DNA of 44,934 nucleotides from an uncultured Thermoplasmatales archaeon (GTDB lineage Archaea; Thermoplasmatota; SW-10-69-26; JACQPN01; CAZDGP01): positions 93,292-138,225 of the forward strand of contig CAZDGP010000001.1 in assembly GCA_964505085.1 (NCBI GenBank). Reading direction: 5' to 3'. Positions 3,213-28,075 of the stretch are shown piece after piece; position 1 is the first letter of the stretch, and every line of letters begins with the position of its first letter. The notes beneath the pieces were generated by a model. It was not told the DNA's origin and did not search any database. It was given only the letters and a program-made list of their open reading frames with translations. A program made the translations under genes and the position numbers.

Positions 3213-3224
3213 GATGGTTCCCCT

Positions 3225-3830
3225 CTAGACACCCTCGAGGTCGCCCACGGAGGTCGTAGCCTGCGCCAGGTAGTGCGTAAGCTCCGGTTGAACCTCGACC
3301 TCGTGCTCCCCGGTGAGGCTGGTGCCGCCGTGGTCCACGGTGACGGTGACGGTCCAGTTCCCCACGCCAGCGGTGTCCGTGTGCTCGGCCGCGAGCTCCG
3401 CCAAGGCCGCCTCCCGGTCAGCGGCGGAGATGAGGGAGACGTCCGGGACCTCCGCCAGCTCCACCGTAACCTCCACGGTGGTGCTGGAGGCACCGGCGGT
3501 GATGGAGCCGGTGCCCTCCGTCTCGTTCCCGCCGGGTGTGGTGACGGTGACGGTGACATCGTCCTGGGCAAGGTGACCGGCGCCGGCGCTCACGGTGACG
3601 GTGAACAGCGCCTCCGTGATGTTCCGTTGGTCCACGTCGAAGGTGAACTCCTGCTCGCCCCCGTTGGCTCCCAGGTTCTCCGAGGCTGCGTCGAGCTCGG
3701 TGGTCTCGGTCTCCCAGGATACGTCGAATCGCTGCTCCCCGCCGGGGCCGCCGTAGAGGGCGGCACCGGCCACGGCGGCGACGACGACGATGACGCCGAC
3801 GACGATGATGGCCAGGTCGATCTTCTCCAT
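3225..3830 (-). CDS. hypothetical N-terminally membrane-anchored, Thr/Val/Glu-rich beta-type protein
   Basis: 201 aa from ATG 3830 (AGGTGA 4 nt upstream). MEKIDLAIIVVGVIVVVAAVAGAALYG is a single TM segment followed by an acidic, T/V-rich ectodomain. The stop is 12 nt upstream of the NSS transporter start. No family recognised. Confidence 0.6.
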   Translation of the reverse strand: MEKIDLAIIVVGVIVVVAAVAGAALYGGPGGEQRFDVSWETETTELDAASENLGANGGEQEFTFDVDQRNITEALFTVTVSAGAGHLAQDDVTVTVTTPGGNETEGTGSITAGASSTTVEVTVELAEVPDVSLISAADREAALAELAAEHTDTAGVGNWTVTVTVDHGGTSLTGEHEVEVQPELTHYLAQATTSVGDLEGV

Positions 3831-12630: not shown

Positions 12631-13521
12631 ATGAGCGTGAGCTCCCACGCCCGGGACATCGAGACGATGCGCGTGCGAGGCGCCGGCGCCATCGCCCGCC
12701 ACGCAGCGGAGGCGCTGGCGGACTGGGCCCGCACCGCCGACCCCGGTGCTGGCTTCGAGGAGGAGCTCGAGCACCACGTGGCGCGACTCGCCGCCACGCG
12801 ACCCAGCGCCGTGAGCCTCCACAACGCCCTGGCCTTCATCCAGCGGGCGGCCGCCGGGTCCCCCGGCGACCCCGACGCGGTGATGGAGGCGGCGGAGACC
12901 TTCATGGAGCGGAGCCTAAGCGCGCTCACCGAGTTGGGGGAGCGGGGTGCGCACCTGGTGCCCCGGGAGGGTCGCGTGCTCACGCACTGCAACAGCCAGG
13001 CGGTGCTCAGCGTCCTCGAGGCCGCCTGGGAGGGCGGGGCGCGCGTCCACGTCATCGCCACCGAGACACGCCCCTGGCGCCAGGGCCTCATCACGGTGAC
13101 GCAGCTCTCGGAGGCTGGGATCCCCTCGAGCCTCATCGTGGACAACGCCGCGAACCTCCTCCTCACCACGGTGGATGCCGTCCTCGTCGGCTGCGACAGC
13201 ATCGCGGCCAACGGTGACATCGTGAACAAGGTTGGCACCTCCACCATCGCCATGGCGTGTCAGCAACATGGTGTGCCCTTCTACGTGTGCGCGGAGACCT
13301 ACAAGGTGAACTTGGATGCGCCCACGGGGGCCGACGTCGACATCGAGGAGCGTGACACCACGGAGGTGGTGGAACCGGGGGAGGTCCCGGAGGACGTGGA
13401 GGTGCTGAACCCTGTCTTCGACATCACACCCCACGAGCACGTTACCGCCATCCTCACGGAGCAGGGGCCGCTGGACCCCGGCGACGTGGAGGATGCCGCC
13501 CGACGCGCTTGGGGCGCCTAG
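12631..13521 (+). CDS. e2b2: ribose-1,5-bisphosphate isomerase (e2b2 / aIF-2B-II family)
   Basis: 296 aa from ATG 12631. Motifs: VRGAGAIARHAAEAL, TRPSAVSL, THCNS, ATETRPWRQG, CDSIAANGDIVNKVGT, CAETYK, NPVFDITP. It reads collinear with the characterised Thermococcus R15P isomerase as recalled from memory. A methylthioribose-1-P isomerase paralog cannot be formally excluded. Confidence 0.8.
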   Translation: MSVSSHARDIETMRVRGAGAIARHAAEALADWARTADPGAGFEEELEHHVARLAATRPSAVSLHNALAFIQRAAAGSPGDPDAVMEAAETFMERSLSALTELGERGAHLVPREGRVLTHCNSQAVLSVLEAAWEGGARVHVIATETRPWRQGLITVTQLSEAGIPSSLIVDNAANLLLTTVDAVLVGCDSIAANGDIVNKVGTSTIAMACQQHGVPFYVCAETYKVNLDAPTGADVDIEERDTTEVVEPGEVPEDVEVLNPVFDITPHEHVTAILTEQGPLDPGDVEDAARRAWGA

Positions 13522-14387
13522 TCGGGGACGCCCACCCGCACCCCCCGAACTTTGAAAGCTTCCGCGAGGTGGTGGATGCGCTCCGCCGTGGCGTCCTCGT
13601 CGAAGATCTCCTCACCGAACCCCTCGTAGGGCGTCCCCCGGAGCGCTCTAAGGGTCGCGGGTTGAGCCTTCTCGCGGTAGTTCCACTGCCCGAAGAAGAC
13701 GCGGTCCACGCCGGTGGCGGCGACGCGGTCCGCCACGTTCGCCGGGGCCCACCCGTCGGTGAGGGGGTAGGTGGGTGCAAGGCTCGCGTACGTCGGGATG
13801 CCGGCAGCGTGGATGCGCTCCAACGCCCGCAACCGCCCCGCCACCGGGGGTGCCTGCGGTTCCACCGCCTGGCGGAACCCATCGTCCAGGGTGGGGACGC
13901 TCACGCCCACGCGGAGGTCGTCGAATCCCTCGAGGAGGTCCAGGTCCCGGAGGACAAGGGGGCTGCGGGTGAGCACCCTGAGGGGCCACTGGACGCGAAG
14001 CAGGACCTCGAGGCACCGCCGCGTGAGCTCGTAGCGGCCCTCGGCGGGTTGGTAGGGGTCGGTGGCGCTGCTCAGGAAGACGAGCCCGGGGTCCCGGCGG
14101 CGGACCTCGCGGCTCAGGAGCCGGGGCAGGTTCCGCTTGGCCTTCACCCATCCGCCCCAGGGAGCTTGCTCCCGGTGGGTGACGCTGGGTACGTAGCAGT
14201 ACCGGCACCCGTGGGTGCATCCCAGGTAGGGGTTGAGGCTGTACGGGGTCCCCGGGAGGCCGCAGTCCGTGAGTCCGCTGCGGGCATCCACCTCCTCAAC
14301 GTTGTCCCCGGGTGTCCTGTCCCTGGGCGGGGTGGGGCGGGACCCGTCCCGGAAGTGGTCCAGCGTGGTGGATGCCGGGCTCGCCAT
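13518..14387 (-). CDS. radical SAM protein (SplB / DNA-photolyase-like COG1533 type)
   Basis: 289 aa with the CxxxCxxC cluster in LGCTHGCRYCYVP near the N-terminus and a TIM-barrel-like remainder. Its stop overlaps the e2b2 stop in a shared CTAG (13518-13521). Confidence 0.75.
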   Translation of the reverse strand: MASPASTTLDHFRDGSRPTPPRDRTPGDNVEEVDARSGLTDCGLPGTPYSLNPYLGCTHGCRYCYVPSVTHREQAPWGGWVKAKRNLPRLLSREVRRRDPGLVFLSSATDPYQPAEGRYELTRRCLEVLLRVQWPLRVLTRSPLVLRDLDLLEGFDDLRVGVSVPTLDDGFRQAVEPQAPPVAGRLRALERIHAAGIPTYASLAPTYPLTDGWAPANVADRVAATGVDRVFFGQWNYREKAQPATLRALRGTPYEGFGEEIFDEDATAERIHHLAEAFKVRGVRVGVPD

Positions 14388-14454
14388 GTCGTTGAGAGGT
14401 CAGGGGGAGGATGGGTGAAGGTTCCCCGTGGGGTAGCCCGGAACTACGGGTCCA

Positions 14455-15141
14455 CTACGCGTGGTCCCCGCCGTCCTCGCCAGCGCGGAGGCGGCGCACC
14501 GCCGCCATCACGAGGAGGCCGATGGCGGCGAGGAGCACCATGAGGACGGCGCCGTAGAGGGACCGGAGCTCGAGGCTCGCGGCCAAGGCCTCCGGGAGCA
14601 CGATCCCCACGATGCGGGTAAGGATGATGGCTCCACCGACGATGAGGGCGGCGAGGAGGAGCGTGCGGCGGCTCCGGTTCACGCGGTGCTCCATGGTCCG
14701 TAGCACGCGGCTGCGGACATCTCGGTCCGGGGTGTCGTCGTCCTCCCGGGTGCCAAGGCGATCCTGGAGGCTCGCACCCTCCCGGGCACCTAGCATGGCC
14801 TGCAGGAGCACCGCGAGCCCCAGCGCTCCCGCCAGGGCGATGACCCAATCCAGCACGGTGGGGAGGCCCAGGCGGTAGGGAGTGGGCGCCAGGACGATGA
14901 GGACGGTGCCCCAAAGCGTCCAGTTCACCCGGCATCGGAGAACACCCAGAAGGCCCACGAGTCCCCCTGCTCCCGCCAGGGCGAACCCGAGGAGAAGCGA
15001 CCCGCCGACGCCGTCGAGGATGGGGCGTCCCCTAAGCACGAGGGTGACAGCTGCCGCCGTGGCCACGAGGAGCCCCAGGAGCGCCTGGCCCCGCGGCAGG
15101 TGCTCGCGGACCCTCTCGACGGGCGGTCCTCCGTTGCTCAT
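14455..15141 (-). CDS. hypothetical polytopic membrane protein, last gene of the giant-protein string
   Basis: 228 aa with 4-5 hydrophobic segments separated by an Arg/Asp-rich loop. ATG 15141 overlaps the DUF58 stop (ATGA). No family recognised. Confidence 0.6.
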   Translation of the reverse strand: MSNGGPPVERVREHLPRGQALLGLLVATAAAVTLVLRGRPILDGVGGSLLLGFALAGAGGLVGLLGVLRCRVNWTLWGTVLIVLAPTPYRLGLPTVLDWVIALAGALGLAVLLQAMLGAREGASLQDRLGTREDDDTPDRDVRSRVLRTMEHRVNRSRRTLLLAALIVGGAIILTRIVGIVLPEALAASLELRSLYGAVLMVLLAAIGLLVMAAVRRLRAGEDGGDHA

Positions 15142-16460
15142 CGGTTCATCACCCTCCCCAAGGCCATCTCCAGGGTCTCACCGGGTTCCCAGTTCACGAT
15201 GTTCGCGTCGTACCCGCGGAGCATCCGGAGGTTCTCCTGCCGCTCGAGGGTCCCCAGCTCGTGCTCGGTGCGGCCGCCGTTCAGGCGCTCCGGCTCCACC
15301 TCCGGTACCGGTGGCACGACCACGGTGACGTAGAGGTCCCGAGCGCGCAGGTTCCGCACCGCCCGGGCCACGGAGGGGTCCGCGGCGAGGTTGCTCACGA
15401 TGACCACGGGCGTCCGGGGGCTGAGGCTGGGAAGGATCTCGTCCACGACCTCCCCCAGCGTCATGGCACCGCGTCCAGGCTCCTGAACCATGAGCTCGCG
15501 GACGTCGTGGGACATGCGCTCTGCGCCCTGGGGCTCCACCTCCGTCAACCCGTCACCGTAGGCCAGCACCTGGACGCGGTCCCGGTTCCCGAAGAAGTAC
15601 CCCATGAGGCTCACCACGGCGCGGGCACCGTACACGTTGGCGTTGGCGCCGGCGGTGCCCAGGGTGCTCACCTCCCGGGCATCGAAGAGAAGCGTAACGA
15701 GGGTCTGGGATTCCCGCTCCCACTGGTTCACGATGAGCTCGTCGTCGCCGCTCTTGCTGCTCGCCTTCCAGTTCACGGACCGCATGGGGTCCCCCGGGAG
15801 GTAGTCGCGGAGGGCGAAGAAGTCCGTGCCGCCGCCGGGTTGCCCCGTGTGGAAGGCTCCGCTCACGAGGAAGGGCTGGCGGGCGTTGGCGAGCACGTCG
15901 TCCAGGTCCTCCGGGCGTGGGAACACCTTCAGGCTCTCGACGCCTCCGGCGGCCTCGTCCCGAACGAAGAACCCGAAGGCGTCGCGGAGCCGAAGCTCCA
16001 CCGGGCCCACGTCGAAGGTTCCCTTCACCGGGCTCGTGACCTCGTAGCGGAGCTCCTCCCCCGCGGCATCGTCGAGGTCCAAGAGGTCGTAGTTGCTGCC
16101 CTCGGTGAGGGTCATGGCATCCTCCAGGCGGTCCCGGATCTCGAAGCTCGCGTTGCCACCGCCGCGGGCTGTCCGCACCCGGAGGACCACAGCCACGGCA
16201 TCCCGCTCGCTGGTGGTGCGCTTCCCCATCTCCCGCTCCACCTCCACGTCCAACCCCCCCACCTGCACCGCTCCCAGCGTCAGAAGGGTGACGAGCACGA
16301 GGCCCGCCGCCGTGGGCAGGGGGTTGCCCAGGGCCAACCCCGCGAAGAGGAGCACGAGGGCAGCGGTGGCCGCAGCCCCCCCGCGGGGCGTGAGCTCCGG
16401 GAGGTGCAGGCGGTCCTTCAGGCTAGGTTGGGCCTCCGGCTCCGTCGAGGGGTCCGTCAC
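15138..16460 (-). CDS. DUF58 domain protein (vWA-like partner of MoxR-type systems)
   Basis: 440 aa. Two N-terminal TM segments, then the DUF58 hallmark FFALRDYLPGDPMRSVNWKASSKSGDDELIVNQWERE. The GTG start 16460 overlaps the DUF4350 stop (GTGA), with GGAGGTGA 4 nt upstream. Confidence 0.85.
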   Translation of the reverse strand: MTDPSTEPEAQPSLKDRLHLPELTPRGGAAATAALVLLFAGLALGNPLPTAAGLVLVTLLTLGAVQVGGLDVEVEREMGKRTTSERDAVAVVLRVRTARGGGNASFEIRDRLEDAMTLTEGSNYDLLDLDDAAGEELRYEVTSPVKGTFDVGPVELRLRDAFGFFVRDEAAGGVESLKVFPRPEDLDDVLANARQPFLVSGAFHTGQPGGGTDFFALRDYLPGDPMRSVNWKASSKSGDDELIVNQWERESQTLVTLLFDAREVSTLGTAGANANVYGARAVVSLMGYFFGNRDRVQVLAYGDGLTEVEPQGAERMSHDVRELMVQEPGRGAMTLGEVVDEILPSLSPRTPVVIVSNLAADPSVARAVRNLRARDLYVTVVVPPVPEVEPERLNGGRTEHELGTLERQENLRMLRGYDANIVNWEPGETLEMALGRVMNR

Positions 16461-17731
16461 GTGGTCACCTCCCTCGTGTTGTCTGCGTCCTGGGTGCCAG
16501 TGGGTGACGACGCTGCATCAACCTCGCTCCCGTAGGCGCGGATGCGCGCGAGCAGGCTCTCGGCCCGGGTGCGGTTCACGGAGGGGTCCTCCGCCTCCAG
16601 GAGCTCCCGGATGCGCGGGTCCCCGGCGGCCTCCACGGCGCGGGCACGCTTGTCCTGCACGTGGTCCGGGATCTCATGGTGTCGCATGACCTCCTGTAGG
16701 GCGAGACGCTGCAACCGCCACCCCATGAGGTCGGGGCGGTCGCTGGGGATGTGGACGCTGTCGAGGTCCTGCCGGTGCACGCGGAAGTCCTCCGGACGCT
16801 CCAGGAGGAGCAACCCCAGGAGGGCTCCGCCCACGAGGGTGATGAAAGCGACGGAGCCAAGGATGGGGTCCTGGGTGCCCAGGACCGCCGCGGTGCCCGC
16901 CCCCCGCACCATGCCGGTGCCCAGGGGAGCGCGGTGGCGGGACTCGTCGAAGACCACGGTGCCGCCCTGGGGCAGGAGGGTGAAGACGAGGTCCCGGATG
17001 AAGGCGTCGTTGCGTGCGCCATCCATGTCCATGACGGCGTTGGTGAAGATGCCGGGGTCGCTCACGAAGACGATGACGCCGTCCCCCGCCTCCACCTGGA
17101 CGGCCACGGGGAAGGGGCCCTCCGTATCCGCGTCGTCGGAACGCCCGTTCCCGTTGAGGTCGATGTACGCGTTGGGGCTGGTGCGCGCGATGACGGTGGC
17201 GTCAGCGTCGGGAGCCACGCTCAGGCTCGTGGGCACGTTGGTCACGACGCGGAAGCTCCGATCGCCGAGGGTGGCGTTCACGGCGACGAAGCTGCGGTTC
17301 CCCGCGAAGTCGTCGTCGGAGAGCACCACCCCGTCGAAGCTCACGCCGAAACGGTTCGCAACGCTGTTCCCGGAGCCGAAGTCGTCGGCGAGGACCACGC
17401 GGCCCCCGTCCCGGACGAAGGCCTCGATGGCGTCCACCTCGCTGGAGCGGTACGCCTCCTCCACCCCGAGGACGAGCACGGCGTACCGCGAGGGGTTCTC
17501 GACGCCGCCGAGGAGGTGGGGTGACGTCTGGATGTTCCCCGTGGGGTACCCGTCGGCCGCCAGGGCCGTCCGGACCCGGCTCGCATCCCGGGTATCGTCC
17601 CCGTAGGCGCTGAGCTGGCGCTCGGGCCCGGTGAGGGTGGAGACCACGAGGGTTCCCACGAGGGCCACAGCGATGAAGATGAGTGCCATGCGCTTCCGCC
17701 GGGGAGACCATCCGCTCCAGGGAAGGTTCAT
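16457..17731 (-). CDS. DUF4350 domain membrane protein
   Basis: 424 aa from ATG 17731 (GGAGGTG 5 nt upstream). It has an N-terminal TM, an ectodomain with YAVLVLGVEE...AFVRDGGRVVLADDFGSG typical of DUF4350/GldG-like folds, a second TM near residue 320, and a cytoplasmic tail. Confidence 0.8.
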   Translation of the reverse strand: MNLPWSGWSPRRKRMALIFIAVALVGTLVVSTLTGPERQLSAYGDDTRDASRVRTALAADGYPTGNIQTSPHLLGGVENPSRYAVLVLGVEEAYRSSEVDAIEAFVRDGGRVVLADDFGSGNSVANRFGVSFDGVVLSDDDFAGNRSFVAVNATLGDRSFRVVTNVPTSLSVAPDADATVIARTSPNAYIDLNGNGRSDDADTEGPFPVAVQVEAGDGVIVFVSDPGIFTNAVMDMDGARNDAFIRDLVFTLLPQGGTVVFDESRHRAPLGTGMVRGAGTAAVLGTQDPILGSVAFITLVGGALLGLLLLERPEDFRVHRQDLDSVHIPSDRPDLMGWRLQRLALQEVMRHHEIPDHVQDKRARAVEAAGDPRIRELLEAEDPSVNRTRAESLLARIRAYGSEVDAASSPTGTQDADNTREVTT

Positions 17732-17798
17732 GGTCCCACCTCCGAGGCCGTGGAGCCGCGGGCGGGTTGCCACCTTGGCCCCCCGCGAGGCCGTGAGC

Positions 17799-20700
17799 TC
17801 ACGTGGGTTCACCTCCGGGGTTCCCGGGGGCGGTGACCCATCGCTTGCCCTCGCTCAGGTCCTGCTGGAGCGCACGGAGGTTCGCCACGGCGCGGTCCCG
17901 CATCTCCGGCCCGGCGGGGCGGACGCTGTACCGGGCCTCGTCGAAGATGTCCACGAGGGTGCGGAGGTGGTCCGGTTGCACCGGCAACGCATCCTCCGCC
18001 GCAGCCGCGAACTCCCGAGCGGTGAGGTCGGGACGGTCCTCGACATCGCTCACCCGGGACACGAGGGAGACGAGAGCGCGGTACGTCTGCATGATGACGG
18101 CCTCGTACTCGTTGCCTGCGGCCAGTTGCTCCTCCGCCGCGCGCAGGATGTCCCCCGCCTCCTCCACCAGGCCGCGACGCCACCGGAGGTACCCGTAGAT
18201 GCCCAGGCCCACGATGCCCAGAGCCAGGAGCGCCAGGAGGATGGGGGGTGCTGCCTGGGTGAAGGTGGATTCGCTGGCCACGAGCGTGGTGCTCGAGGTC
18301 TGGGGGAGCTGGGATTGGCTCCCGGTGAAGCGGGCGGTGACGTCGCTGGTGCCGGCGCTCGTGACGCGTCCGGGGAAGGTGGCGACACCGGTCTCGTTCG
18401 TGGTGAGGGTGATGGGGTAGCGGAAGCCGGAGAACCGCACGCGCACCTGGCTGTTCTTGATGGGGTCGCCCTCATCGTCCACGAGGCGGATGGTCCCCGT
18501 GAAGTCCTCACCCACCGTGAGATCCCGCGGTACCGTGACCTGGATGTTGGGCTTGCCCTGGATCTGCACCTCGCTGGCGTGGACGGCCTCCACGTGGTTC
18601 GAGTCCCCCGCGTACCGCACCTCCAGGATGGTGCTGCCCCGGGGAAGGTCCTGATCGAGACCGCCCTGCAGGAGGAAGCTCCCGTCGGGGCTCGTCCGAC
18701 CAGTCGTGACGAGGCTCCCGTTGACGAGAACCTTCACGGGAGCGTTCTTCACGGGCTCCCCGAGGTTCGTGTGGAGCTCGCCCTTGAGGGTGAAGACCTC
18801 CCCTCGGACCAGGGGTGTGAGGCTCCGCACCACGATGTTCGTGTCGGAGAGGACGCGGTAGTGGGCGGTGGCGGTGACGTCGCTGAAGCGGTTCGACCCC
18901 GGGTAGGATGCCTTCACCGTGACGTTCTGCGGTGAGAGCCTGGACCCGTCGAAGGTGAGTTGGAACCGGCCGCTGAAGTCCGTGAACGCCGTCTGCTCCA
19001 CCCCGTTGAAGCTCACGGTGATGGGAGCAGCCACCACGGGGCGGTCCTCCCCATCCACGAGGGTGCCGTTCACTGGGATGGGGCCCGTGCGCACCGTGCG
19101 GTCCGCGATGGTGAGTGATGTGTCGGCCCGCACATGGTAGAACGTGGAGACGGGGCCAGCAGGTGCCAGGGCACCGTCGGGGCTTCCGGCGTACTCCGCC
19201 CGCACCAGGGCGCTTCCCAGCGGTCGGTCCTCGGGGATGGGGTGGGTAACCTGGAAGCGTCCCTCGGCGTCGGTGGTGACGGTACCGAGGTCCGCGGTCT
19301 CGAAGACCACGCTCACGGGGGCGTCCGCCACGGCGTTCCCGAGGTTGTCGGTGAGGAACCCCTCCACCACCATCGTCTCACCGCGTGTCACGGGTTTCGC
19401 GGGGACGTCGAGGTGGGTGACGCTGCGGACGAAGGTCCGGTCCTGTGTGGTGCTCGATGCGTAGAGGGGGCTCCCCTGGAAGTCCGCGTGGACGCTCACG
19501 TTCCCGGGTTCCTGGATGGCGTCGGCGGGGAGCTCCACCCGGAAGGTGCTCGTGGCGTTGTCCACGGGCGCGGTGCGGGATCGGTTCCCCACCTGCAGCG
19601 TGACCTGGAGGGCATGGTCCACGGTGCTGTCGCGCACCGGGAGCCCCGCGAGGTCACGGAGCTCTCCACGGAGGACTAGGGGTTCTCCAAGTGCGCCCTT
19701 GTCCACGCTCACGAAGACCTGGGCCACCTGCTTCACCGTGACGATGCCGGCGTCGGTGCTCGCGGGGACGTGGCGGTCGTTCCCCTCGAAGGAGACGGAG
19801 ACCTTCCGGTTGCCCACGGGCGCCTTCTCCGATACGGGGACCCTGGCGGACCAACGGCCCTCGGAGTCGGTGGAGGTGGAGGTGGTGGCATCGAGGAACG
19901 ACACGTCCACGCGGGCGCCGGTCACGGGCAGCCCGCGGCTGTCCACGAGGCGACCGCTCGTGGGAAGGGTCCGACCGGCCACCGCGGTGAGGGTCTCGTC
20001 GTCCACGGAGGCCTCCAGGGTCGTGGGGAAGCGCACGTTCACGGGCACCGTCACCGTGGTGCCTTCCACGAGCTCGCTGTCAGGGAAGATGAGGGTGAGG
20101 TCGTGGGTTCCGGGGGCGTTGAAGGGTTCGGTGGGTTCGTCGAGGGTGATGGTGCCGGTGGCGTCCGTGGTGGCACGGGTGAGGACGCTTCCGCGCCATT
20201 CCACGCGGACGTCGCGGCTTGTCAGGGGATCACCCACGTCGTCGGTGAGGGTGAAGCTCCCCTGGAGGTTCCTCCCGTTCGTGAGGGCGACCTCCTCCGG
20301 CGCCTGCCACGTGCTCCCCGTGCGGATCGTGATGGAGTCCCCGACGGTGTGGGGGTCGGTGAAGGTGGTGAGGACGTCGTCCGTGCCGTAGCTCCAGACC
20401 ACGACCCGGTAGTCGAAGCCGGGGTCGAGGGTGCTCGTGTTCACACCCCACGAGACGGTGGACCCTGCAGCGCGCGGCGTCCCGAAGAGGGTGAGGTCCG
20501 CAGGCACCGACGTGGCGGTGGTCCGAGTGAGGTTCGCTGTGACCTCGAAGCTTCCGGAGCCGTCGGTGAAACCGACGCCGAGCACGCGCCCTTCCGCGGG
20601 TCGGGCCTCGCCGGCGTTGCTTACGGGCAGGAGGTTCACCAGCACCGGCACGTTCGCGAGGTCCGCGGATGCGTCGAGGCGCCCGGTGACGGTGACGTGC

Positions 20701-23700
20701 CCGCCCTTGTACGCCACGTTCTCCGAGCGGGGGTAGGTCACGTCCACGTTCTGGAACGACGGGGTGGGTCGGTCGTCGCTGCTTGGCCCCGTGACACGGC
20801 CCTCCTCCCAGACGTAGGAGCGCACGAGAGCGGGATCCCGCGGGTCGCGGTCCCCCGCGTTGTCGGGATCAAGGAGCGGGTGGGGGTCCTCGCCGTTGAA
20901 GTCGTTGAGACCGTCGTTGTCGTAATCGTAGTCGTTGCCGAGGACCGTGCTGGAGTCGACGATGACGCCGTCGGAGGCCCCGTCCCCGTCGGTGTCCTCC
21001 CGCACGGGGTTGGACCCGAACCACCACACGCCATCCGTCTCCAGGTTCCAGTCGTCGGGCATCCCGAGCTCGTACTCCTGTAGGTCGCTCAGGGCGTCGT
21101 CATCGTTGCGGGTGTCGGAGGTGTCGAGGCCGTAGCGCACCTCGTAGAAGGCCACCCACCCGTCGGGGAGCCCGTCACCGTCGGAGTCGGGCTTGGTGGG
21201 GTCGGTGGCGGGGGTGCGGGTCTCCTCCCCCAGGAAGACGCGCTCGCCGCCGTCGGTGACGAAGTACACGATGCCGGCATCCAGGAAGCGCTGGGTGGCG
21301 GTGGCGGAGAGCTCGGACTCCTTGAGGTCCGTGCCGTCCAGCAGCCCGTCGTTGTCGGTGTCGAAGTCCGCCACGTCGGTGGGGGGTGAGCGCGTGAGCT
21401 CCTCGCTGTTGGGGATACCGTCGAAGTCCACGTCCCCGTTGGGGTCGTCGTCCTTGGGGAACATGGGGTCCGTGTTGAAGTCCCCGCTCACCTCGTCCCC
21501 GTCGGGGATGCCCCCGAGGTCGCTGTCCTCGAGCACCGGGTCGGTTCCCTCCATGGCCTCCACGCGGTTCGAGAGGCCGTCGCCGTCGGCATCCCGGGAG
21601 GCCCCGCTGGGGTCGTGGGGGTTGAACTGGGCCCCGGCGCCGGCGGCCCGCTCCTTGTAGTACAGCTCCCACGTGTCCTCCATGCCGTCCCCGTCGGTGT
21701 CCAGCAGCGTGGGATCGGTGCTGGCGTTGAACTCGCCCCGGTACGTGAGGTCGAAACGACCCTGCACCTTCACGACGTCGCGTTGGCCACCGTCGGGGTC
21801 GGGCACGCTCTCGTAGGTTTGGGCCACGGTCTCGTTGTACGCGTCCACGAGGTCCGCGGGGGCCTCAGCGAAGCGGGTGTAGGTGAGGCTCTTGCTCACG
21901 TCGCCGGCATCCCGGGGGTCCAGGGGATCGAGGTCCACGGGTCGGCTGCTCCCGAGGCTCACCCGCTGGAAGAAGACCTCCCACCCGTCGGGGATGCCGT
22001 CACCGTCGGTGTCCTCGGCGTTGGGGTCGGTGCCTGACTCGAACTCCGCGAGGTTGTCGTGGACGTACGCGCGAGGCTTCACGTACCCCTCGGAGTAGGT
22101 GACGCCGTCCTCGTCGAGGTCCCGGTCGGCGTCGGTCTTGCCGTCGTTCAGGTCGAGGCTGTCCTCGTCGCTGGCGTTGAGGTTCCAGTTGCCGCGGTCG
22201 TAGTTCCATCGCGCGTACTTGTTCTCCCACGCGTCCGGGAGGCCCTCACCGTCGGTGTCCACGAGGGCCGGGTCGGTGACGGGGAGGAGGTACGTGTCCT
22301 TGCTCCCGGGTGCTGCCTCCCGCCGGGGCGGGTCGAGCTCCTCCCCGTCGGGGATGGTGTCGCAATCGCTGTCGGGGTCCACGATGTTGGGGATGCCGTC
22401 GCCGTCGATGTCCCCCTGGGGCGCCAGGGCGCTTCGGACCTCGTCCAGGGTGGTGGCGTCCACGCCCTGACAGGTGGTGAGTTGGCCCTGGTCCCGGATG
22501 CGGCTCAACCCGTCGTCGCTCATGGACTCGCGGGCGTTCCGCCAGTGGTCGAGCTCCGCCTTGTCCCGGAGGCCGTCCCCGTCGGTGTCGGGGTCGGTGG
22601 GGTCGAGCTTGGGTTCCACCTGGTAGAGCACCTCGAAGCTGTCGCTCAACCCGTCGAGGTCGGTATCGGGACTGCGGGGGTCGAGGCTGCAGGGGCCGTC
22701 GGGGCAGAACTCGAGCTGGCGACCGGCCACGGAGCCGAAGCCCCGTTGCTCGTCGCGGTCCGTGAGGAAGTCCCCGTCGGTGTCGGCCTTCGTGGGGTCG
22801 CTCGTCACATGGACCTCCTCGCCGTCCACCTTCACGGTCCATCCCTCCACCTCCTCAGGGTCGTCGAGGCCGTCACCGTCGGTGTCCCGGGAGCGGGGGT
22901 CGGAATCCACCTGCGCCTCCTGACGGTTGAGGAGCCCGTCATCGTCGAAGTCCCCGTCGGCGTCGCCGGGGTCCAGGGGGTCCAGTTGGTACCGGACCTC
23001 CCACCCGTCGTCCATGGTGTCCCCGTCGCTGTCGGGGTTCCGCGGGTCGAGCCAGGAGGCGTAGTCCTCACCCACCGTGGGGAGGCGTCCGGGGTTGAAG
23101 CTGTCCCGGCTCCACCGGAACTCCTCCAGGTTCGAGAGGCCGTCATCGTCGGGGTCCATGAAGGAGACGCCGGGCTCCGTGAGGTTCAGGTCGTGCTCCA
23201 GGAGGTACCCGTCGCTGATGCCGTGGCCTGCGGTGCTGTAGGCCACGGGGTTGGTGTGGTGCACGAAGATCTCGTCGGGGTCGCTGATCCCATCGTGGTC
23301 GGTGTCGGCGCTGAAGGGGTCGGTGCCGTGCTCCGCCTCCTCGATGTTGGTGAGGCCGTCCCCGTCGGGGTCCCCATCCGTTCCGGCGGCGGTCCGGGGA
23401 TCGAGGCCGTCGTAACGGCACTCGAAGGCATCGTCCATGCCATCCCCGTCGGTGTCGGCCTTCCAGGGATCGCTCCCGCACTGGAACTCCTCCAGGTTCG
23501 TGAGACCGTCACCGTCAGGGTCCTCGCCGCTGTCGTTGAGGAGGGGGTTCACGCTGTACGTGTTGCTGATGGGGTCCAGACGGCGATGTTCGGCCTCCCA
23601 CCCGTCGGGGATGCCGTCACCGTCGGTGTCGCTCCGCGCAGGGTCGGTGCCGTACGTGTAGAGCTCCTGGAGGTCGCTTACGTTGTCCCCGTCGGTGTCC

Positions 23701-23933
23701 AGGCGGTCCAGGCCCGTGTCCTGCCCCGCGCCGGAGGGCTCGATCTGGGCGGACTCCGTGTACGGTTGGCTGAAGCTGGAGGCGGCGAAGACCACGGCTG
23801 CGACGACGAGGAGCCCGGCCACCGCGAGGGGTACGATCCGTTGCTTGTTCTCACCGAGGTACCGCCGGAGGGCGGAGCGGTCCCGGAGGAGGTCCAGGGC
23901 GTCCTGGATGCTCTCCTTCACCACCGCCGCCAC
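17799..23933 (-). CDS. giant envelope protein D: signal-anchor, about 27 thrombospondin-type-3 repeats, 8 Ig-like repeats, second TM, cytoplasmic DUF4129
   Basis: 2044-aa ORF, longest form. The likely start is GTG 23924 or GTG 23921, the latter forming a GTGA overlap with the stop of protein C; GGAGGTG lies at 23937-23931. TM segments are at residues 33-54 and 1894-1916. The C-terminal YRALVSL...TAREFA...LVDIFDEARYS matches DUF4129. Confidence 0.9.
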   Translation of the reverse strand: MAAVVKESIQDALDLLRDRSALRRYLGENKQRIVPLAVAGLLVVAAVVFAASSFSQPYTESAQIEPSGAGQDTGLDRLDTDGDNVSDLQELYTYGTDPARSDTDGDGIPDGWEAEHRRLDPISNTYSVNPLLNDSGEDPDGDGLTNLEEFQCGSDPWKADTDGDGMDDAFECRYDGLDPRTAAGTDGDPDGDGLTNIEEAEHGTDPFSADTDHDGISDPDEIFVHHTNPVAYSTAGHGISDGYLLEHDLNLTEPGVSFMDPDDDGLSNLEEFRWSRDSFNPGRLPTVGEDYASWLDPRNPDSDGDTMDDGWEVRYQLDPLDPGDADGDFDDDGLLNRQEAQVDSDPRSRDTDGDGLDDPEEVEGWTVKVDGEEVHVTSDPTKADTDGDFLTDRDEQRGFGSVAGRQLEFCPDGPCSLDPRSPDTDLDGLSDSFEVLYQVEPKLDPTDPDTDGDGLRDKAELDHWRNARESMSDDGLSRIRDQGQLTTCQGVDATTLDEVRSALAPQGDIDGDGIPNIVDPDSDCDTIPDGEELDPPRREAAPGSKDTYLLPVTDPALVDTDGEGLPDAWENKYARWNYDRGNWNLNASDEDSLDLNDGKTDADRDLDEDGVTYSEGYVKPRAYVHDNLAEFESGTDPNAEDTDGDGIPDGWEVFFQRVSLGSSRPVDLDPLDPRDAGDVSKSLTYTRFAEAPADLVDAYNETVAQTYESVPDPDGGQRDVVKVQGRFDLTYRGEFNASTDPTLLDTDGDGMEDTWELYYKERAAGAGAQFNPHDPSGASRDADGDGLSNRVEAMEGTDPVLEDSDLGGIPDGDEVSGDFNTDPMFPKDDDPNGDVDFDGIPNSEELTRSPPTDVADFDTDNDGLLDGTDLKESELSATATQRFLDAGIVYFVTDGGERVFLGEETRTPATDPTKPDSDGDGLPDGWVAFYEVRYGLDTSDTRNDDDALSDLQEYELGMPDDWNLETDGVWWFGSNPVREDTDGDGASDGVIVDSSTVLGNDYDYDNDGLNDFNGEDPHPLLDPDNAGDRDPRDPALVRSYVWEEGRVTGPSSDDRPTPSFQNVDVTYPRSENVAYKGGHVTVTGRLDASADLANVPVLVNLLPVSNAGEARPAEGRVLGVGFTDGSGSFEVTANLTRTTATSVPADLTLFGTPRAAGSTVSWGVNTSTLDPGFDYRVVVWSYGTDDVLTTFTDPHTVGDSITIRTGSTWQAPEEVALTNGRNLQGSFTLTDDVGDPLTSRDVRVEWRGSVLTRATTDATGTITLDEPTEPFNAPGTHDLTLIFPDSELVEGTTVTVPVNVRFPTTLEASVDDETLTAVAGRTLPTSGRLVDSRGLPVTGARVDVSFLDATTSTSTDSEGRWSARVPVSEKAPVGNRKVSVSFEGNDRHVPASTDAGIVTVKQVAQVFVSVDKGALGEPLVLRGELRDLAGLPVRDSTVDHALQVTLQVGNRSRTAPVDNATSTFRVELPADAIQEPGNVSVHADFQGSPLYASSTTQDRTFVRSVTHLDVPAKPVTRGETMVVEGFLTDNLGNAVADAPVSVVFETADLGTVTTDAEGRFQVTHPIPEDRPLGSALVRAEYAGSPDGALAPAGPVSTFYHVRADTSLTIADRTVRTGPIPVNGTLVDGEDRPVVAAPITVSFNGVEQTAFTDFSGRFQLTFDGSRLSPQNVTVKASYPGSNRFSDVTATAHYRVLSDTNIVVRSLTPLVRGEVFTLKGELHTNLGEPVKNAPVKVLVNGSLVTTGRTSPDGSFLLQGGLDQDLPRGSTILEVRYAGDSNHVEAVHASEVQIQGKPNIQVTVPRDLTVGEDFTGTIRLVDDEGDPIKNSQVRVRFSGFRYPITLTTNETGVATFPGRVTSAGTSDVTARFTGSQSQLPQTSSTTLVASESTFTQAAPPILLALLALGIVGLGIYGYLRWRRGLVEEAGDILRAAEEQLAAGNEYEAVIMQTYRALVSLVSRVSDVEDRPDLTAREFAAAAEDALPVQPDHLRTLVDIFDEARYSVRPAGPEMRDRAVANLRALQQDLSEGKRWVTAPGNPGGEPT
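17859..18161 (-). other. DUF4129-like cytoplasmic tail domain of protein D
   Basis: Residues about 1925-2025, immediately after the TM segment PPILLALLALGIVGLGIYGYL and a RWRRG stop-transfer. It carries the T-x-R-E-F and ARYS motifs characteristic of DUF4129. Confidence 0.7.
18279..20711 (-). repeat. eight tandem ~95-100-aa beta-sandwich repeats (CarboxypepD_reg / bacterial Ig-like type) in protein D
   Basis: A recurring pattern G-x-L-x-D-x-x-G-x-P-V...V-x-V-x-F...T-D-x-x-G-x-F appears at residues about 1075-1885. Examples: GRLVDSRGLPVTGARVDVSF...TDSEGRW and GFLTDNLGNAVADAPVSVVF...TDAEGRF. Confidence 0.75.
20898..23705 (-). repeat. array of about 27 thrombospondin type-3-like Ca-binding repeats in protein D
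   Basis: D-x-D-x-D-G-x-x-[DN]-x-x-E motifs, for example DTDGDGIPDGWE (twice), DPDGDGLTNLEE and DTDGDGMDDAFE, counted by eye between residues 77 and 1012. The plus-strand DNA core CCGTCGGTGTC recurs at least 10 times. Confidence 0.85.
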
Positions 23934-26900
23934 CTCCGGGTGACGACGGCGCCGACGGCCGCGGTGAGGACGAGGAGGAGGAAGCCGGGGCCGGGAACGT
24001 TGGCTTCGGAGGGGAGCTCCACGACCTTGGCGTTGTTCGTCTCGTCCGTCTCGACGAACTCGTTCCTGTGGTCCAACGCCACCGTGAGGTTGTCCTGCAC
24101 CTCCACCACGGTCCAGGGGATCTGGAAGAGGCGGGTCTCACCCGGCGGCAGGCTCTCGAGGGTGAGGTTCCTCACGACCTCACCATCCACCAGGATCGCG
24201 AGGTCCACCCCGTTGGCGGGTACGTTGCCGTCGTTCACCACCGTCACGGCCAGCCTCCCGGGTTCTCCGGGGGTGAGGTCCCGGGTGATGCTGCGAACCT
24301 CCTCGATGCGGAGGTCGCGCTTGATCCAGTTCGCGGCGAGGTCGAAGCTCTTGGACTCCCCAAGGGGGAGGTCCGCGTCCACGGTCCACACCACCGAGCT
24401 CGAACCCATGGATGCGGGGGCCTCCAGGAGCACATCGACCTCGATGGTCTCCCCCGGTGCGAGGTTGACCGTGCTGCGGGACCTGTTGAGGAACGTGGCG
24501 CTCCAACCATCAGGTACGTCCAGGGTGAGCCTGGAGGAGAGGTCCACGTTCCCGACGTTCGTTACGTTGAGGGGGACGCGGGTCCCGCTTCCGGGTGGTA
24601 CCAGGGTGAGGTCGCTGGGTGGCGTCACCTGCAGGTTGGCTCGGCGGGCCACCTGGATGGTGGCGTTGAACTGGTGGAGACCCCGTTCGCCGTCGGGCGT
24701 CTCCATGAAGAAGCTGAACGTGACGTTGTAGGCGCCGCTCTCGGCGCCGCTGGGCACCTGGAGGTCCCCGGCGACGCTCACGGCATCGCCGGTGTCGAGG
24801 CGCCGAGTGGCGAGGGGTGTCGTCTTGTCGAAGCTCCATCCCGGGGGGAGCCCCGTGACGTTCATGCGAAGGTCGAAGGGTCCGTTGGCGGCGTTGGAAG
24901 CCGTGAACCGGTACGTGAAGTCGTCACCGGGCAGAAGGCTCCGGGGTTGGACGCCCCGGAGGTCCAGGGTGAAGTTGTTCCCGACGACGGCCCGGACGCG
25001 GGTTCCCGCCTCCGCGCTCGTCCCCGAGCTCGTGGAGCTCGTGGCGGTGATGCCGAGGTCCATGATCTCTCCCACAGGGGCGTCGTCGCCAGCGGTAAGG
25101 GTGACGTTCACGACGCGCACGTCCCCGGGTTCACCCTGGGCGTTCCGCGTGCCGTTGGCCCGGAGGAGGAAGCTCTCGGGCTCGGGGGTGACGCTCCAAC
25201 CGGGGAGCCGGAGGGGGCTCGTGCCCATGGTGACCACGGTGTCGTCCCCCTCGTTCACCACCTCCACCTGGAAGGTGGCGTTCTCGCCGGGGAGGATGGG
25301 CAGGCTCGTCTGCTGGGCGCGGATGCTGAACTCCGTGTTGAGATCCGGCACGGTGGTGGCCACCACCTGGCTCCGGGCGCTGTTGTCCTTGACGCTGATG
25401 GCCTGCACGGCGGCCTCGCAACCGAAGCCGAGGCTCGAGTCGCCGGTGCTCGTGACGTTGAGGAACACGACGCGCTCCTCGTTCCGGGGGATCGCCACGC
25501 TACCCTCGCTCGTGTCGGGGGTGGCAAGGACCGAGCCGTCCGCGGCCTCCACACGGGTATCGTACCCGAAGCGGCTGCAGTCGCTCACGGTGAACTTGAA
25601 CGCGTCGTCGCCGGTTCCCGTGTTGTTCACGAGGATGGCGTACGTCGTGGACTCACCGCTCTCGACGAGGCGCTCGATGCTCTTGAGGTTGTTGGCGCGG
25701 AACACGGTGTCCACGCTGTGGCGGGTGCGCACGGCCACCTGGAGCTCACTCTCCGCCGTCATCTCGGGGTTCCCCTGGCTGGTGGCCGTGAGGTTCACCT
25801 GGAGGGTCTGGCCGGTCTCGGCCTCCTCCGGCACCTCGATGACGAGGGTGACGCGACGGGTCTCGAAGGTCTCGACACCCGCCTCGAAGGTGCTGGAGAG
25901 CGTCACCGGCCACTCCCGGCTGCTGTTGAGCTGGAGCACCACATCGTCGGGGAGGTTCCCCTTGCCCACGCTCCGGCCCAGGTTCGTCACGTCGAGACCG
26001 ATGCGCCGGTCCTCGCCGGGGGCCAGGGTGAGGGTGCGAAGGCTCTTGCCCCACCGGATGAGGTTCCCGTGGAACTCCCCTTCGCCCACGTGGTACACGG
26101 GGGACCGGGTGGCGGAGGAGAAGTACGTGCTCGTACGCCCGTTCCCGTCGGAGAAGTTGGGGCTCACGGTGTACACGAACACGGGCTTCGAGGACTCCAC
26201 GCGGTACGCTCCCGGTCCGGGGAAGAGGTACCCCGAGCCCCCGCGGTCCTCCTCCAGGAACCGGTGGCGGTTGATGGTCTCGTTGAAGACGATCTCCCCG
26301 GTGTCGGTGTCCCGCACCATCACGTGGGTGCGGTCGAAGGCCGGGTAGACGACCATGCGGTGGTTGTCGTCGGCGGTGCCGCGCATGGGCACCTCGAAGG
26401 TGGTGCCCTGGACACCGCCCCAGGGCACGACACCCTGGTCGGGGTCCAGGACCACGCTGAAGTCCCCGTCACCGATGAGGCCGAAGGTGTTCCCCCAGCT
26501 GGAGCTCCACGTGTTGAAGTCATGCATGTCCAGGAGCCAGGGGTCGTGGGGTGCCGGCGCCACCACCTTGGTGCTGCTCACGGAGGCGTCCGCGGTGTTG
26601 TACGCCTGCACCTCCACCGGTTCCTCGCCGCTGGCCCAGGCGCGGAACCCGTAGTACAGGGGCGAGTAGAAGGTGTCCCCCACGGGGGACCCGTAGGCGC
26701 TGGGCACCTGGACGCCCATGTTGTCGCGGGTGCCTGCCTGGGCCACCGCGATAGGGGTGGTGGAGGACATGAAGACGGGGGATCCCGCGGGGATCCGGAG
26801 GTGCTTGGCCTCACCGGGGCCGAGGACGAAGGACTCGCCGCCGTTGCTCCATCCTGCGTTGACGCGGGCCCGCTCCTGGGTGGCGATGACGTTCACGTCG

Positions 26901-28075
26901 AGATTCGCCTTGCACACGCCCACGTCGGGGCGCTGGAGGGAGCGGAAGCGGTACTGCGTCCCCACGAGGCCGCCATCCTCGCTGGGGTAGAACAACCCGT
27001 GGGGGCAGTCCTTGAGGCTGCTCGGGGTGGGTCGGAGCGCGGTGTACACGGGTTTGTCCGCTCGGACGTAGAAGTGGAAGGGTTGGTCGGCCTTCACCCT
27101 GACCGTGAGGGTGTCGCTGCTGTCGCCCATGGGTTGCACCTCGAAGGTGGGGGCCTCCGTCACGTCCCCGAGGGTCTGCTCGTCGTTGGCGTCGACGCAG
27201 GCGCCCACGGAGCTCGAGGTGCACCGCTTGAGGGCGGTGGGCTCCAGACCGCTGTGCGTGTACCGGTAGATCTGCACCGCGGTGTCGTCGTAGAGCCCGT
27301 ACACGTCGATCTGGGGTTGCGAGCCGGTGCCGGAGCTGCTGGGATCCCAGGGTGCGTACCCGTAGATGTCGGTGCCGCGACGGATCCAGTACAACCCGTT
27401 GAGGTCCCCAAGGTTCTCGGCCGACGTGTCGGGTTCGGGCTTGTCCCCGTTCTCCTCGATGTCGAAGTACACGAAGTAGAGGCGGTCGGTGTTGAACTCC
27501 CCGTTCACCGTCCAGGTGACCGTGCCCACGGCGTTGGCGTGAGGGTCGAAGCGGTCGTTCCGGTTCTCGGGGTTCTCGAGGAGCGTGGGGGTGAAGATGC
27601 TGGGCACGAGGGTCGAGCGGTCGGGCTGCTGCTTGATGGTGCCTGAACCGCGGTCGTACTCCACCACGCGTACGCTGTCCTCGTCGAAGGTGAAGCTGTT
27701 CAGCGCGCCGGAGACGTCCTGGGGCCAACTGCGGTCGGGGTCGTCGGCGGACCGGCGGATGGCCTCGGTGAAGTCCACCTCCACGCTCACCGTGAGGTCG
27801 GGGATCCCCCGCGTGTCGGCGAACCGTCCCTCCACCACGGCGTCGGGGAACCGGGGTTCCAGGTGGACCGGGACACGCATGTGCCACCCGTCGTTCCACC
27901 ACTCGTACGTGACGCCGTCCTGGAGGACGTCCGCGTCCCCATCGTCCGTCCCGCTGGTGGTCTGCGCCGCCGCAGGGAGCGGCAGCATGGGCGTGACGAG
28001 GACCAGGACCAGCACGAGGACGGGCAGGGTGGTGCGGAACCCTCGCGTCAGGACGTCCACCTCCGGCGAAGGCAT
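23918..28075 (-). CDS. giant envelope protein C: signal peptide, ~640-aa unclassified region, CARDB/NEW3-like array, PGF-CTERM-like end
   Basis: 1385 aa from ATG 28075; the alternative start is GTG 28060. The signal peptide is MPSPEVDVLTRGFRTTLPVLVLVLVLVTPMLPLPAAAQ. The gene overlaps the end of protein B by 28 nt. The upstream part of the 28273 ORF is Arg/Gly filler read through the end of gene B. Confidence 0.88.
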   Translation of the reverse strand: MPSPEVDVLTRGFRTTLPVLVLVLVLVTPMLPLPAAAQTTSGTDDGDADVLQDGVTYEWWNDGWHMRVPVHLEPRFPDAVVEGRFADTRGIPDLTVSVEVDFTEAIRRSADDPDRSWPQDVSGALNSFTFDEDSVRVVEYDRGSGTIKQQPDRSTLVPSIFTPTLLENPENRNDRFDPHANAVGTVTWTVNGEFNTDRLYFVYFDIEENGDKPEPDTSAENLGDLNGLYWIRRGTDIYGYAPWDPSSSGTGSQPQIDVYGLYDDTAVQIYRYTHSGLEPTALKRCTSSSVGACVDANDEQTLGDVTEAPTFEVQPMGDSSDTLTVRVKADQPFHFYVRADKPVYTALRPTPSSLKDCPHGLFYPSEDGGLVGTQYRFRSLQRPDVGVCKANLDVNVIATQERARVNAGWSNGGESFVLGPGEAKHLRIPAGSPVFMSSTTPIAVAQAGTRDNMGVQVPSAYGSPVGDTFYSPLYYGFRAWASGEEPVEVQAYNTADASVSSTKVVAPAPHDPWLLDMHDFNTWSSSWGNTFGLIGDGDFSVVLDPDQGVVPWGGVQGTTFEVPMRGTADDNHRMVVYPAFDRTHVMVRDTDTGEIVFNETINRHRFLEEDRGGSGYLFPGPGAYRVESSKPVFVYTVSPNFSDGNGRTSTYFSSATRSPVYHVGEGEFHGNLIRWGKSLRTLTLAPGEDRRIGLDVTNLGRSVGKGNLPDDVVLQLNSSREWPVTLSSTFEAGVETFETRRVTLVIEVPEEAETGQTLQVNLTATSQGNPEMTAESELQVAVRTRHSVDTVFRANNLKSIERLVESGESTTYAILVNNTGTGDDAFKFTVSDCSRFGYDTRVEAADGSVLATPDTSEGSVAIPRNEERVVFLNVTSTGDSSLGFGCEAAVQAISVKDNSARSQVVATTVPDLNTEFSIRAQQTSLPILPGENATFQVEVVNEGDDTVVTMGTSPLRLPGWSVTPEPESFLLRANGTRNAQGEPGDVRVVNVTLTAGDDAPVGEIMDLGITATSSTSSGTSAEAGTRVRAVVGNNFTLDLRGVQPRSLLPGDDFTYRFTASNAANGPFDLRMNVTGLPPGWSFDKTTPLATRRLDTGDAVSVAGDLQVPSGAESGAYNVTFSFFMETPDGERGLHQFNATIQVARRANLQVTPPSDLTLVPPGSGTRVPLNVTNVGNVDLSSRLTLDVPDGWSATFLNRSRSTVNLAPGETIEVDVLLEAPASMGSSSVVWTVDADLPLGESKSFDLAANWIKRDLRIEEVRSITRDLTPGEPGRLAVTVVNDGNVPANGVDLAILVDGEVVRNLTLESLPPGETRLFQIPWTVVEVQDNLTVALDHRNEFVETDETNNAKVVELPSEANVPGPGFLLLVLTAAVGAVVTRRWRRW
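23921..23995 (-). other. PGF-CTERM-like tripartite sorting signal of protein C
   Basis: The C-terminus is V-PGPGF-LLLVLTAAVGAVV-TRRWRRW: a PGF motif, a hydrophobic helix and a basic tail. Codon positions were verified (VPGPGF = 23998-23981). Confidence 0.65.
24011..26038 (-). repeat. array of ~100-aa CARDB / NEW3-like beta-sandwich domains in protein C
   Basis: Residues about 680-1355 show repeated L-x-P-G-E...V-x-V-x-N-x-G...P-x-G-W-S...V-x-L-x-V motifs. The array ends in a clear CARDB domain (LTPGEPGRLAVTVVNDGNVPANGVDLAILVDGE...ETDETNN). Confidence 0.7.

Follow-up and report, generated by a model that had tools for sequence, protein, structure and literature searches.

MoxR ATPases and their vWA/DUF58 partner proteins are very widespread in prokaryotes and poorly understood, and a locus that keeps the partners side by side without the ATPase raises the question of where the ATPase is encoded, or whether it is needed at all. 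Such a locus lies on a 44,934-nt stretch of contig CAZDGP010000001.1 (positions 93,292 to 138,225) from an uncultured Thermoplasmatales archaeon, hereafter called the window. A gene for a giant protein ending in a DUF4129 domain (protein D) is followed there by genes encoding a DUF4350 protein, a DUF58 protein, and a small membrane protein. This gene set represents a lineage-specific form of the archaeal DUF4350 (arCOG01314)/MoxR/DUF58 (Ig-vWA) membrane system; its MoxR-less arrangement is neither unique nor unrecognised in kind, and recurs in Thermoplasmatota.

Domain composition of the locus and search for MoxR

The genes in question close a single, tightly packed array on the minus strand (44934 to 14455), which encodes, in order, proteins A, B, C, and D, the DUF4350 protein, the DUF58 protein, and a 228-aa protein with multiple transmembrane (TM) helices. 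Five of the six junctions are overlapping: GTGA is found at A/B and at DUF4350/DUF58, where the stop codon of the former and the start codon of the latter share it at 16457-16460, as a first-pass annotation of this DNA had stated, and ATGA joins the end of DUF58 to the beginning of the 228-aa gene at 15138-15141. The D/DUF4350 junction is a short overlap or a gap of ~67 nt, according to the start codon chosen for DUF4350: the open reading frame (ORF) from GTG spans 16457-17812 (minus strand, 451 aa), and the version of the gene caller (P0047, 424 aa) starts from the ATG at 17731 (16457-17731, minus strand).

The 440-aa protein (15138-16460, minus strand) and the 424-aa protein had been named DUF58 and DUF4350 from the letters of the sequence, and both identities hold, with Pfam scores above the gathering thresholds and agreeing structure models. 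DUF58 (PF01882) was matched with an E-value of 1.5e-10 (41.1 bits, gathering threshold 23.4) and DUF4350 (PF14258) with 3e-14 (54.1 bits, threshold 30.4), while DUF4129 (PF13559) was matched at the C-terminus of protein D with 7.9e-13 (48.7 bits, threshold 24.8). Protein D (2044 aa; 17799-23933, minus strand) possesses an N-terminal TM helix (residues 33-51), an ectodomain of ~1850 aa, a second TM helix (residues 1898-1916; nt 18186-18242), and the DUF4129 domain (residues 1951-2020; nt 17874-18083), which confirms that DUF4129 is here the cytoplasmic tail of a larger protein. The ectodomain consists of TSP3 Ca-binding repeats together with Ig-like, CarboxypepD_reg, and MG domains.

According to hydropathy scans, the DUF4350 protein starts with a TM helix or signal anchor and continues through an ectodomain and a further TM helix into a cytoplasmic helical tail of ~115 aa, and DUF58 begins with a TM hairpin of two helices. 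The structure model of DUF4350 (pLDDT 71) gives the ectodomain a GIFT/IFT52-N/OST-Wbp1/GH42-trimerisation fold, followed by the TM helix and helical tail; a link of the DUF4350 family to GldG, obtained with HHpred in 2015, predicts exactly such a fold (PMC5898192). The AlphaFold model of DUF58 (pLDDT 75) shows an Ig-like beta-sandwich and a vWA-like domain besides the pair of N-terminal TM helices, with fold matches to VWF A domains, CARDB, and the NorQD complex (9qhg_G). The soluble domains of DUF58 are probably cytoplasmic, as judged by the two-TM hairpin and by its pairing with MoxR. The window protein retains every residue that does not vary in the DUF58 alignment. The DxSxS motif of the metal ion-dependent adhesion site (MIDAS) is absent from both MoxR-linked and MoxR-less DUF58 proteins of this subfamily; its loss was considered as a correlate of MoxR loss and rejected, the MoxR-linked relatives P0007-P0009 also being without DxSxS.

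The 228-aa protein (14455-15141, minus strand; 4-5 TM helices), coupled to DUF58 through ATGA, is conserved in the MoxR-less clade only, and phmmer found no homologs outside that clade. In canonical loci, a small multi-TM protein is encoded at this same place, after DUF58. Homology of the 228-aa protein with these small proteins was considered and not adopted, the hhalign match being weak (58.6% probability over 44 columns), and it is kept as a positional analog.

No MoxR was detected by tblastn of two MoxR proteins against the window, which weakly matched MCM and nothing else, nor by hidden Markov model (HMM) search among all window ORFs of at least 60 aa. The first-pass annotation had argued for the absence of MoxR on the ground that no Walker-A-containing ORF exists in 13.5-44.9 kb. 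The absence itself stands, and besides MCM (6513-6536) the classical Walker-A pattern was found only in one spurious antisense frame; the argument, however, is unsafe, for the regular expression [AG]xxxxGK[ST] matches none of four genuine MoxR proteins from related loci (L005 9027-10004, L006 3053-4018, L012 11304-12308, and L094 4746-5858). Where a motif was identified (L005, L006, and L094), it is G(V/Y)PG(L/I)AKT (GVPGIAKT in L094). Because this motif deviates from the textbook Walker-A, pattern-based ATPase screens would miss such MoxR proteins, and the absence from the window is thus concluded from the tblastn and HMM results rather than from the pattern. Likewise, no match to DUF1616 (arCOG02884, PF07760), an optional component of the system (PMC5898192), was obtained among the window ORFs scanned.

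Relatives with and without MoxR

In canonical relatives the order is DUF4129-DUF4350-MoxR-DUF58, and mycobacterial Rv3691-Rv3693 hold the same kind of set (PMC8191103), so that the triad had been rightly recognised as MoxR-associated. Every MoxR-bearing relative has MoxR right after DUF4350, before DUF58 where this is present, and never ahead of the giant genes. The reference-genome DUF4350 closest to that of the window (L016, 39% identity) has MoxR directly downstream, and the DUF58 relatives P0006 (L002) and P0004 (L097) have it directly upstream; unlike in L002, L005, L006, L012, and L097, the window DUF58 is not directly downstream of a PF07726 MoxR, and its start stands at the position of moxR in the relatives. 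In neighbour-joining distance trees without support values, built for both DUF4350 and DUF58, the window clade is nested in or next to MoxR-linked sequences and the other MoxR-less loci are scattered; the phylogeny proposed for DUF58 thus places the MoxR-less window clade inside the MoxR-linked sequences. Relative to the ancestral order, moxR was cleanly deleted between DUF4350 and DUF58 in the window clade, and the deletion re-created translational coupling of these two genes.

MoxR-bearing counterparts of the window locus are those of the type found in Poseidoniia (marine Thermoplasmatota; L012-L015, L018-L024, and L035), which share its gene order and architectures, down to a D-like protein of ~1850-2060 aa with DUF4129 at its end, but keep a 334-aa MoxR between DUF4350 and DUF58 and have fewer upstream giant genes. 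The archetype is complete in the TARA loci L012-15, where a TSP3 giant, an Ig/CarboxypepD_reg protein of 1850-1978 aa ending in DUF4129, DUF4350, MoxR, DUF58, and a 281-aa TM protein follow one another. The first-pass annotation had, as one of two options, tied the loss of MoxR to a repurposing of the system for giant ectoproteins, a link that is not supported, given that giant D-like DUF4129 proteins (~1850-2060 aa) are also present in L012-L015, L022, and L035, where MoxR is retained. Because MoxR-bearing relatives carry such proteins, the giant DUF4129 fusion is older than the MoxR loss. Two bacterial loci, L005 and L006, are arranged as DUF4129-X-MoxR-DUF58; X is a two-TM protein of 164-170 aa (L005 8518-9030, L006 2553-3047) that fills the slot held elsewhere by DUF4350 and has weak similarity to DUF7269 (E 0.003-0.01).

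Close relatives of the window DUF58 and DUF4350 are few, and the closest ones are not from NCBI. The whole synteny is common to L001/L008 (JGI, 53 kb), L009, and L003/L004, with the same overlapping junctions, intact ORFs, and, as in the window, no MoxR. Their shared order comprises the giants, D with DUF4129 (orthologs in L001, L009, and L003), DUF4350, DUF58, a TM protein of 213-218 aa, radical SAM, IF-2B, PcrB, UbiA, and PolB. Since the housekeeping proteins of the window and these relatives are just 57-62% identical, the MoxR-less array is old and has been maintained. All four module genes are intact and tightly packed, with overlaps or short gaps, in at least four genomes at ~50-56% protein identity. 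The ratio of nonsynonymous to synonymous substitution rates (dN/dS) of DUF58 between L001 and L003 was 0.42, against ~0.5 for the flanking IF-2B and PcrB genes with the same estimator (NG86), values suited to relative comparison only, as dS is compressed at 69% GC and housekeeping genes reach ~0.5 too.

A survey of one genome per GTDB species, scanned with a 7-sequence DUF4350 alignment, yielded 80 loci, almost all from Thermoplasmatota or other archaea; a single peptide pattern governed which loci were retrieved, and their ranking followed resemblance to the window protein. Each locus was classified by the gene after DUF4350, using HMMs built for this purpose (MoxR, DUF58, DUF4350, and the DUF4129 tail). 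MoxR followed DUF4350 in 49 loci; DUF58 followed directly, with no MoxR within 10 kb, in three (L017, L025, and L044); 20 loci had neither MoxR nor DUF58; and eight were cut by the contig end. Therefore, 23 of the 72 resolvable DUF4350 loci are MoxR-less, and the co-occurrence count that had been proposed for MoxR-less DUF4350-DUF58 pairs comes to 3/72 in reference genomes. Among the 49 MoxR loci, DUF58 is encoded on the same strand in 21, convergently nearby in 14, and not within at least 3 kb in six, the other eight being too short; MoxR is in the same locus for 35 of the 38 survey loci with a detected DUF58. The 20 loci with neither gene belong to one Thermoplasmata clade, in which DUF4129/Ig and DUF4350 stand together without MoxR or DUF58 within 10 kb, and in the one checked with Pfam (L060) a DUF1616 protein follows DUF4350. 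Taken together, the window clade, L017, L025, and, as a fourth group, L044 with the clade that has neither gene imply that MoxR has been lost independently at least four times, as far as trees and gene order can tell.

Individual MoxR-less loci have neighbours of their own. In L044, DUF58 and a 187-aa protein are followed by an exosortase/archaeosortase-like membrane protein (13221-14213, plus strand; Exosortase_EpsH 23.8 bits, cut-off 25.7), which hints at a link to surface-protein sorting. In L017, a 625-aa P-loop protein with weak MutS_V/AAA_29 matches (13379-15256, plus strand) lies 1 kb downstream of DUF58. The 4-kb contig L096 encodes a DUF58 37% identical to that of the window with a small TM partner (1956-3799), directly after a split AMP-binding enzyme, and neither DUF4350 nor MoxR.

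Source of the ATPase

The clue to the source of the ATPase comes from another metagenome-assembled genome (MAG), PL23a_bin.128 (GCA_028279585.1), in which contig JANQNL010000039.1 carries two complementary loci at opposite ends. One end (L010/L025) encodes a radical SAM protein, a transglutaminase/TSP3/DUF4129 protein, DUF4350, DUF58, a 464-aa protein, and a PQQ-propeller/Ig protein, with no MoxR; the other (L094) encodes a DUF4129/Ig protein (747 aa), DUF4350, and MoxR (AAA_3, E 3e-61), then a convergent histidine kinase, with no DUF58. As in the window, the L010/L025 order is DUF4129 protein, DUF4350, DUF58, and membrane protein, with MoxR neither between them nor within 10 kb. In contrast to the window, its DUF4350 is a deep branch with 30% identity, and its DUF4129 protein is of 1219 aa with a transglutaminase core, so its MoxR loss looks, from sequence comparison, independent of that in the window clade. 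Because one MAG pairs a MoxR-less DUF4350-DUF58 locus with a DUF58-less MoxR locus, supply in trans becomes the likelier reading. The six MoxR loci of the survey that have no DUF58 nearby are a further precedent.

We therefore consider it most likely, with moderate confidence, that MoxR is supplied in trans. In such a system, D, DUF4350, DUF58, and the 228-aa protein would form a trans-membrane scaffold. Outside the cell, the GIFT domain and the Ig/TSP3 ectodomain of D may organise or hold the giant surface proteins A-C; inside, the Ig-vWA domains of DUF58, DUF4129, and the DUF4350 tail may constitute a platform that is normally docked and remodelled by a MoxR hexamer, as in other MoxR-vWA pairs. 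The ATPase of this lineage would come from a moxR elsewhere, probably in a paralogous DUF4129-DUF4350-MoxR locus. Several points weigh against this proposal. No MoxR was found in the 45-kb window or in the ~44.5 kb that were read, as two loci, of the 53-kb syntenic contig; the DUF58-type protein, whose soluble domains are placed in the cytoplasm here, was drawn as secreted by Makarova et al. (PMC5898192); dN/dS is higher for DUF4350 and the 228-aa protein (0.6-0.9), which fits fast-evolving surface parts and also a somewhat relaxed constraint; and the function of the whole system is a prediction, no part of it having been tested experimentally in archaea.

The module might instead be an ATPase-independent derivative, that is, a passive membrane scaffold or anchor for giant ectoproteins that does not need AAA+ remodelling. 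This possibility, which we regard as real but less probable, is favoured by the recurrence of MoxR loss, by the large Thermoplasmata clade that keeps DUF4129/Ig and DUF4350 with DUF1616 and neither MoxR nor DUF58 nearby, by the DUF58 and small TM protein of L096, and by the lack of DxSxS in the subfamily whether MoxR-linked or not. It is opposed by the presence of MoxR in nearly all survey loci with DUF58 and by the sole MoxR-less MAG read in wider context, which has MoxR at a paralogous locus, and a substitute function was not found in the operon. That MoxR still belongs to the operon and merely lies beyond the window edge, upstream of A or elsewhere near the operon on the 138-kb contig, is improbable: gene A does run off the end of the window, but where the first-pass annotation had allowed for a MoxR gene immediately upstream of A, the 4.3 kb upstream of the A ortholog in a syntenic relative hold an 807-aa Ig-like secreted protein and a divergent 423-aa protein, neither of them MoxR-like, and the constant place of MoxR after DUF4350 in the MoxR-bearing relatives also argues against it. 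Least credible of all is a decaying remnant, in which the accessory genes have been functionless since the ATPase was lost and are heading to pseudogenes. The relatively high dN/dS of DUF4350 and the 228-aa protein could be read in this way; however, the intact and compact genes of the diverged carriers, a DUF58 as constrained as the neighbouring housekeeping genes, and the preserved invariant residues of the family all speak against decay.

Giant surface proteins, neighbouring genes, and known systems

Ig-like domains of several kinds (fn3, CARDB, NPCBM_assoc, Big_3_5, MG, and others) occur in proteins A-D, which also bear signal peptides and TM anchors; A, B, and C each have a signal peptide and are anchored at the C-terminus. 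Protein A (38511-44934, minus strand) is partial, its frame being open at the window edge; it contains fn3/Ig-like domains, and its C-terminal TM anchor is followed by a basic tail. Its ortholog P0014 is of 2959 aa, which places ~2.5 kb of gene A beyond the edge. Protein B (3488 aa; 28048-38514, minus strand) has a signal peptide and is held by a TM anchor at the C-terminus; its domains are MAM-like, DUF11/DUF7507, NPCBM_assoc, and CARDB. Protein C (~1385 aa from an internal ATG; 23918-28075, minus strand; the longest ORF begins at 28273) contains Ig_VWA7, NPCBM_assoc, and CARDB. The C-termini of A, B, and C (38511-38600, 28048-28140, and 23918-24010, respectively) each comprise a Pro/Gly motif and a TM helix, after which comes a short tail rich in Arg; that of C reads VPGPGFLLLVLTAAVGAVVTRRWRRW. 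These ends, such as that of C (VPGPGF, TM helix, RRWRRW), resemble archaeosortase PGF-CTERM signals, but A-C gave no match to the NCBIfam models and no archaeosortase gene was found in the window.

The giant proteins (17799-23933 and 28048-44934) are strongly acidic (D+E 16-19%, K+R 6-8%), and D has many TSP3-type Ca-binding repeats, which together suggest a Ca-dependent or salt-adapted surface layer. Long ORFs, of up to 3053 aa (e.g. 28132-37293, plus strand), run antisense to the giant genes; very long antisense ORFs are typical of 69% G+C sequence, and in this window of 68-71% G+C they are not evidence of genes.

A PA0069/Rv2578c-like radical SAM gene (13518-14387, minus strand), scoring below the equivalog cut-offs, follows the 228-aa gene on the same strand after 67 nt, and L001, L003, and L009 have it in synteny. 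It was considered as a part of the system, L010 also having an adjoining one, but the two proteins are not detectably related and the adjacency is treated as coincidental. The window is archaeal, as its 1-13.5 kb encode MCM, family-B DNA polymerase, NMD3, a PcrB-family protein (GGGP synthase family), UbiA prenyltransferase, and an IF-2B family protein, and relatives of the window proteins are named or binned as Thermoplasmatota.

Makarova, Galperin, and Koonin predicted in 2015 that the arCOG01314 (DUF4350)/MoxR/Ig-vWA system is a complex for secretion or membrane remodelling (PMC5898192, section 3.2, Table 2), with ATPase and vWA genes in only "the majority" of the arCOG01314 operons; cultured Thermoplasmata were scored without arCOG01314 in the table of that study. 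The window shares with this system an anchored DUF4350 with an extracellular flavodoxin/GldG-like domain, an Ig-vWA (DUF58) protein, Ig-like membrane or secreted neighbours, and small membrane proteins, but lacks its MoxR/GvpN-type AAA+ ATPase (COG0714) and DUF1616, and its Ig-like partner is protein D with its TSP3/Ig ectodomain and DUF4129 tail, joined by three further giants. In actinobacteria, the mycobacterial cluster Rv3689-Rv3695 contains DUF4350 (Rv3691), MoxR2 (Rv3692), and DUF58 (Rv3693) (PMC8191103), and the bifidobacterial PFNA operon (pkb2-fn3-aaa_atp-duf58-tgm) contains a large FN3 surface protein (PMC8430577). These clusters likewise link a MoxR-proper/DUF58 module to DUF4350 or transglutaminase/DUF4129-type membrane proteins, and the large FN3 protein of PFNA is a further likeness; they differ in being bacterial, in keeping the ATPase, in their kinase/SpoIIM/RDD partners, and in having no giant multi-gene array. 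The vWA-like domain of the window DUF58 also resembles the vWA partners in NorQ-NorD, CbbQ-CbbO, and RavA-ViaA, whose mechanisms have been solved; those partners, however, are soluble, carry MIDAS motifs, and serve as adaptors for defined enzyme substrates, whereas the window DUF58 is membrane-anchored, without DxSxS, and has no ATPase encoded beside it. We found no published account of MoxR-less DUF4350-DUF58 loci in the literature.

The DUF4350 system is known solely through bioinformatic prediction. The effect on current knowledge is modest, given that the variant recurs in Thermoplasmatota. Nevertheless, variants that precisely lack the ATPase, in which everything else remains under selection and adjoins its likely clients, suggest that the cargo or partners of the system are probably giant anchored surface proteins. 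Through comparison, they also allow one to ask if the accessory proteins depend on an ATPase encoded in cis, on one supplied in trans, or on none. It is conceivable, although we hold it only tentatively, that the DUF4129/DUF4350/DUF58/TM module is a self-sufficient anchoring platform for giant archaeal surface proteins, to which MoxR is an optional accessory, repeatedly discarded or shared. If this is true, several modules could share a single ATPase in trans or do without any, and the long-assumed obligate partnership of MoxR with vWA (DUF58) proteins would come apart.

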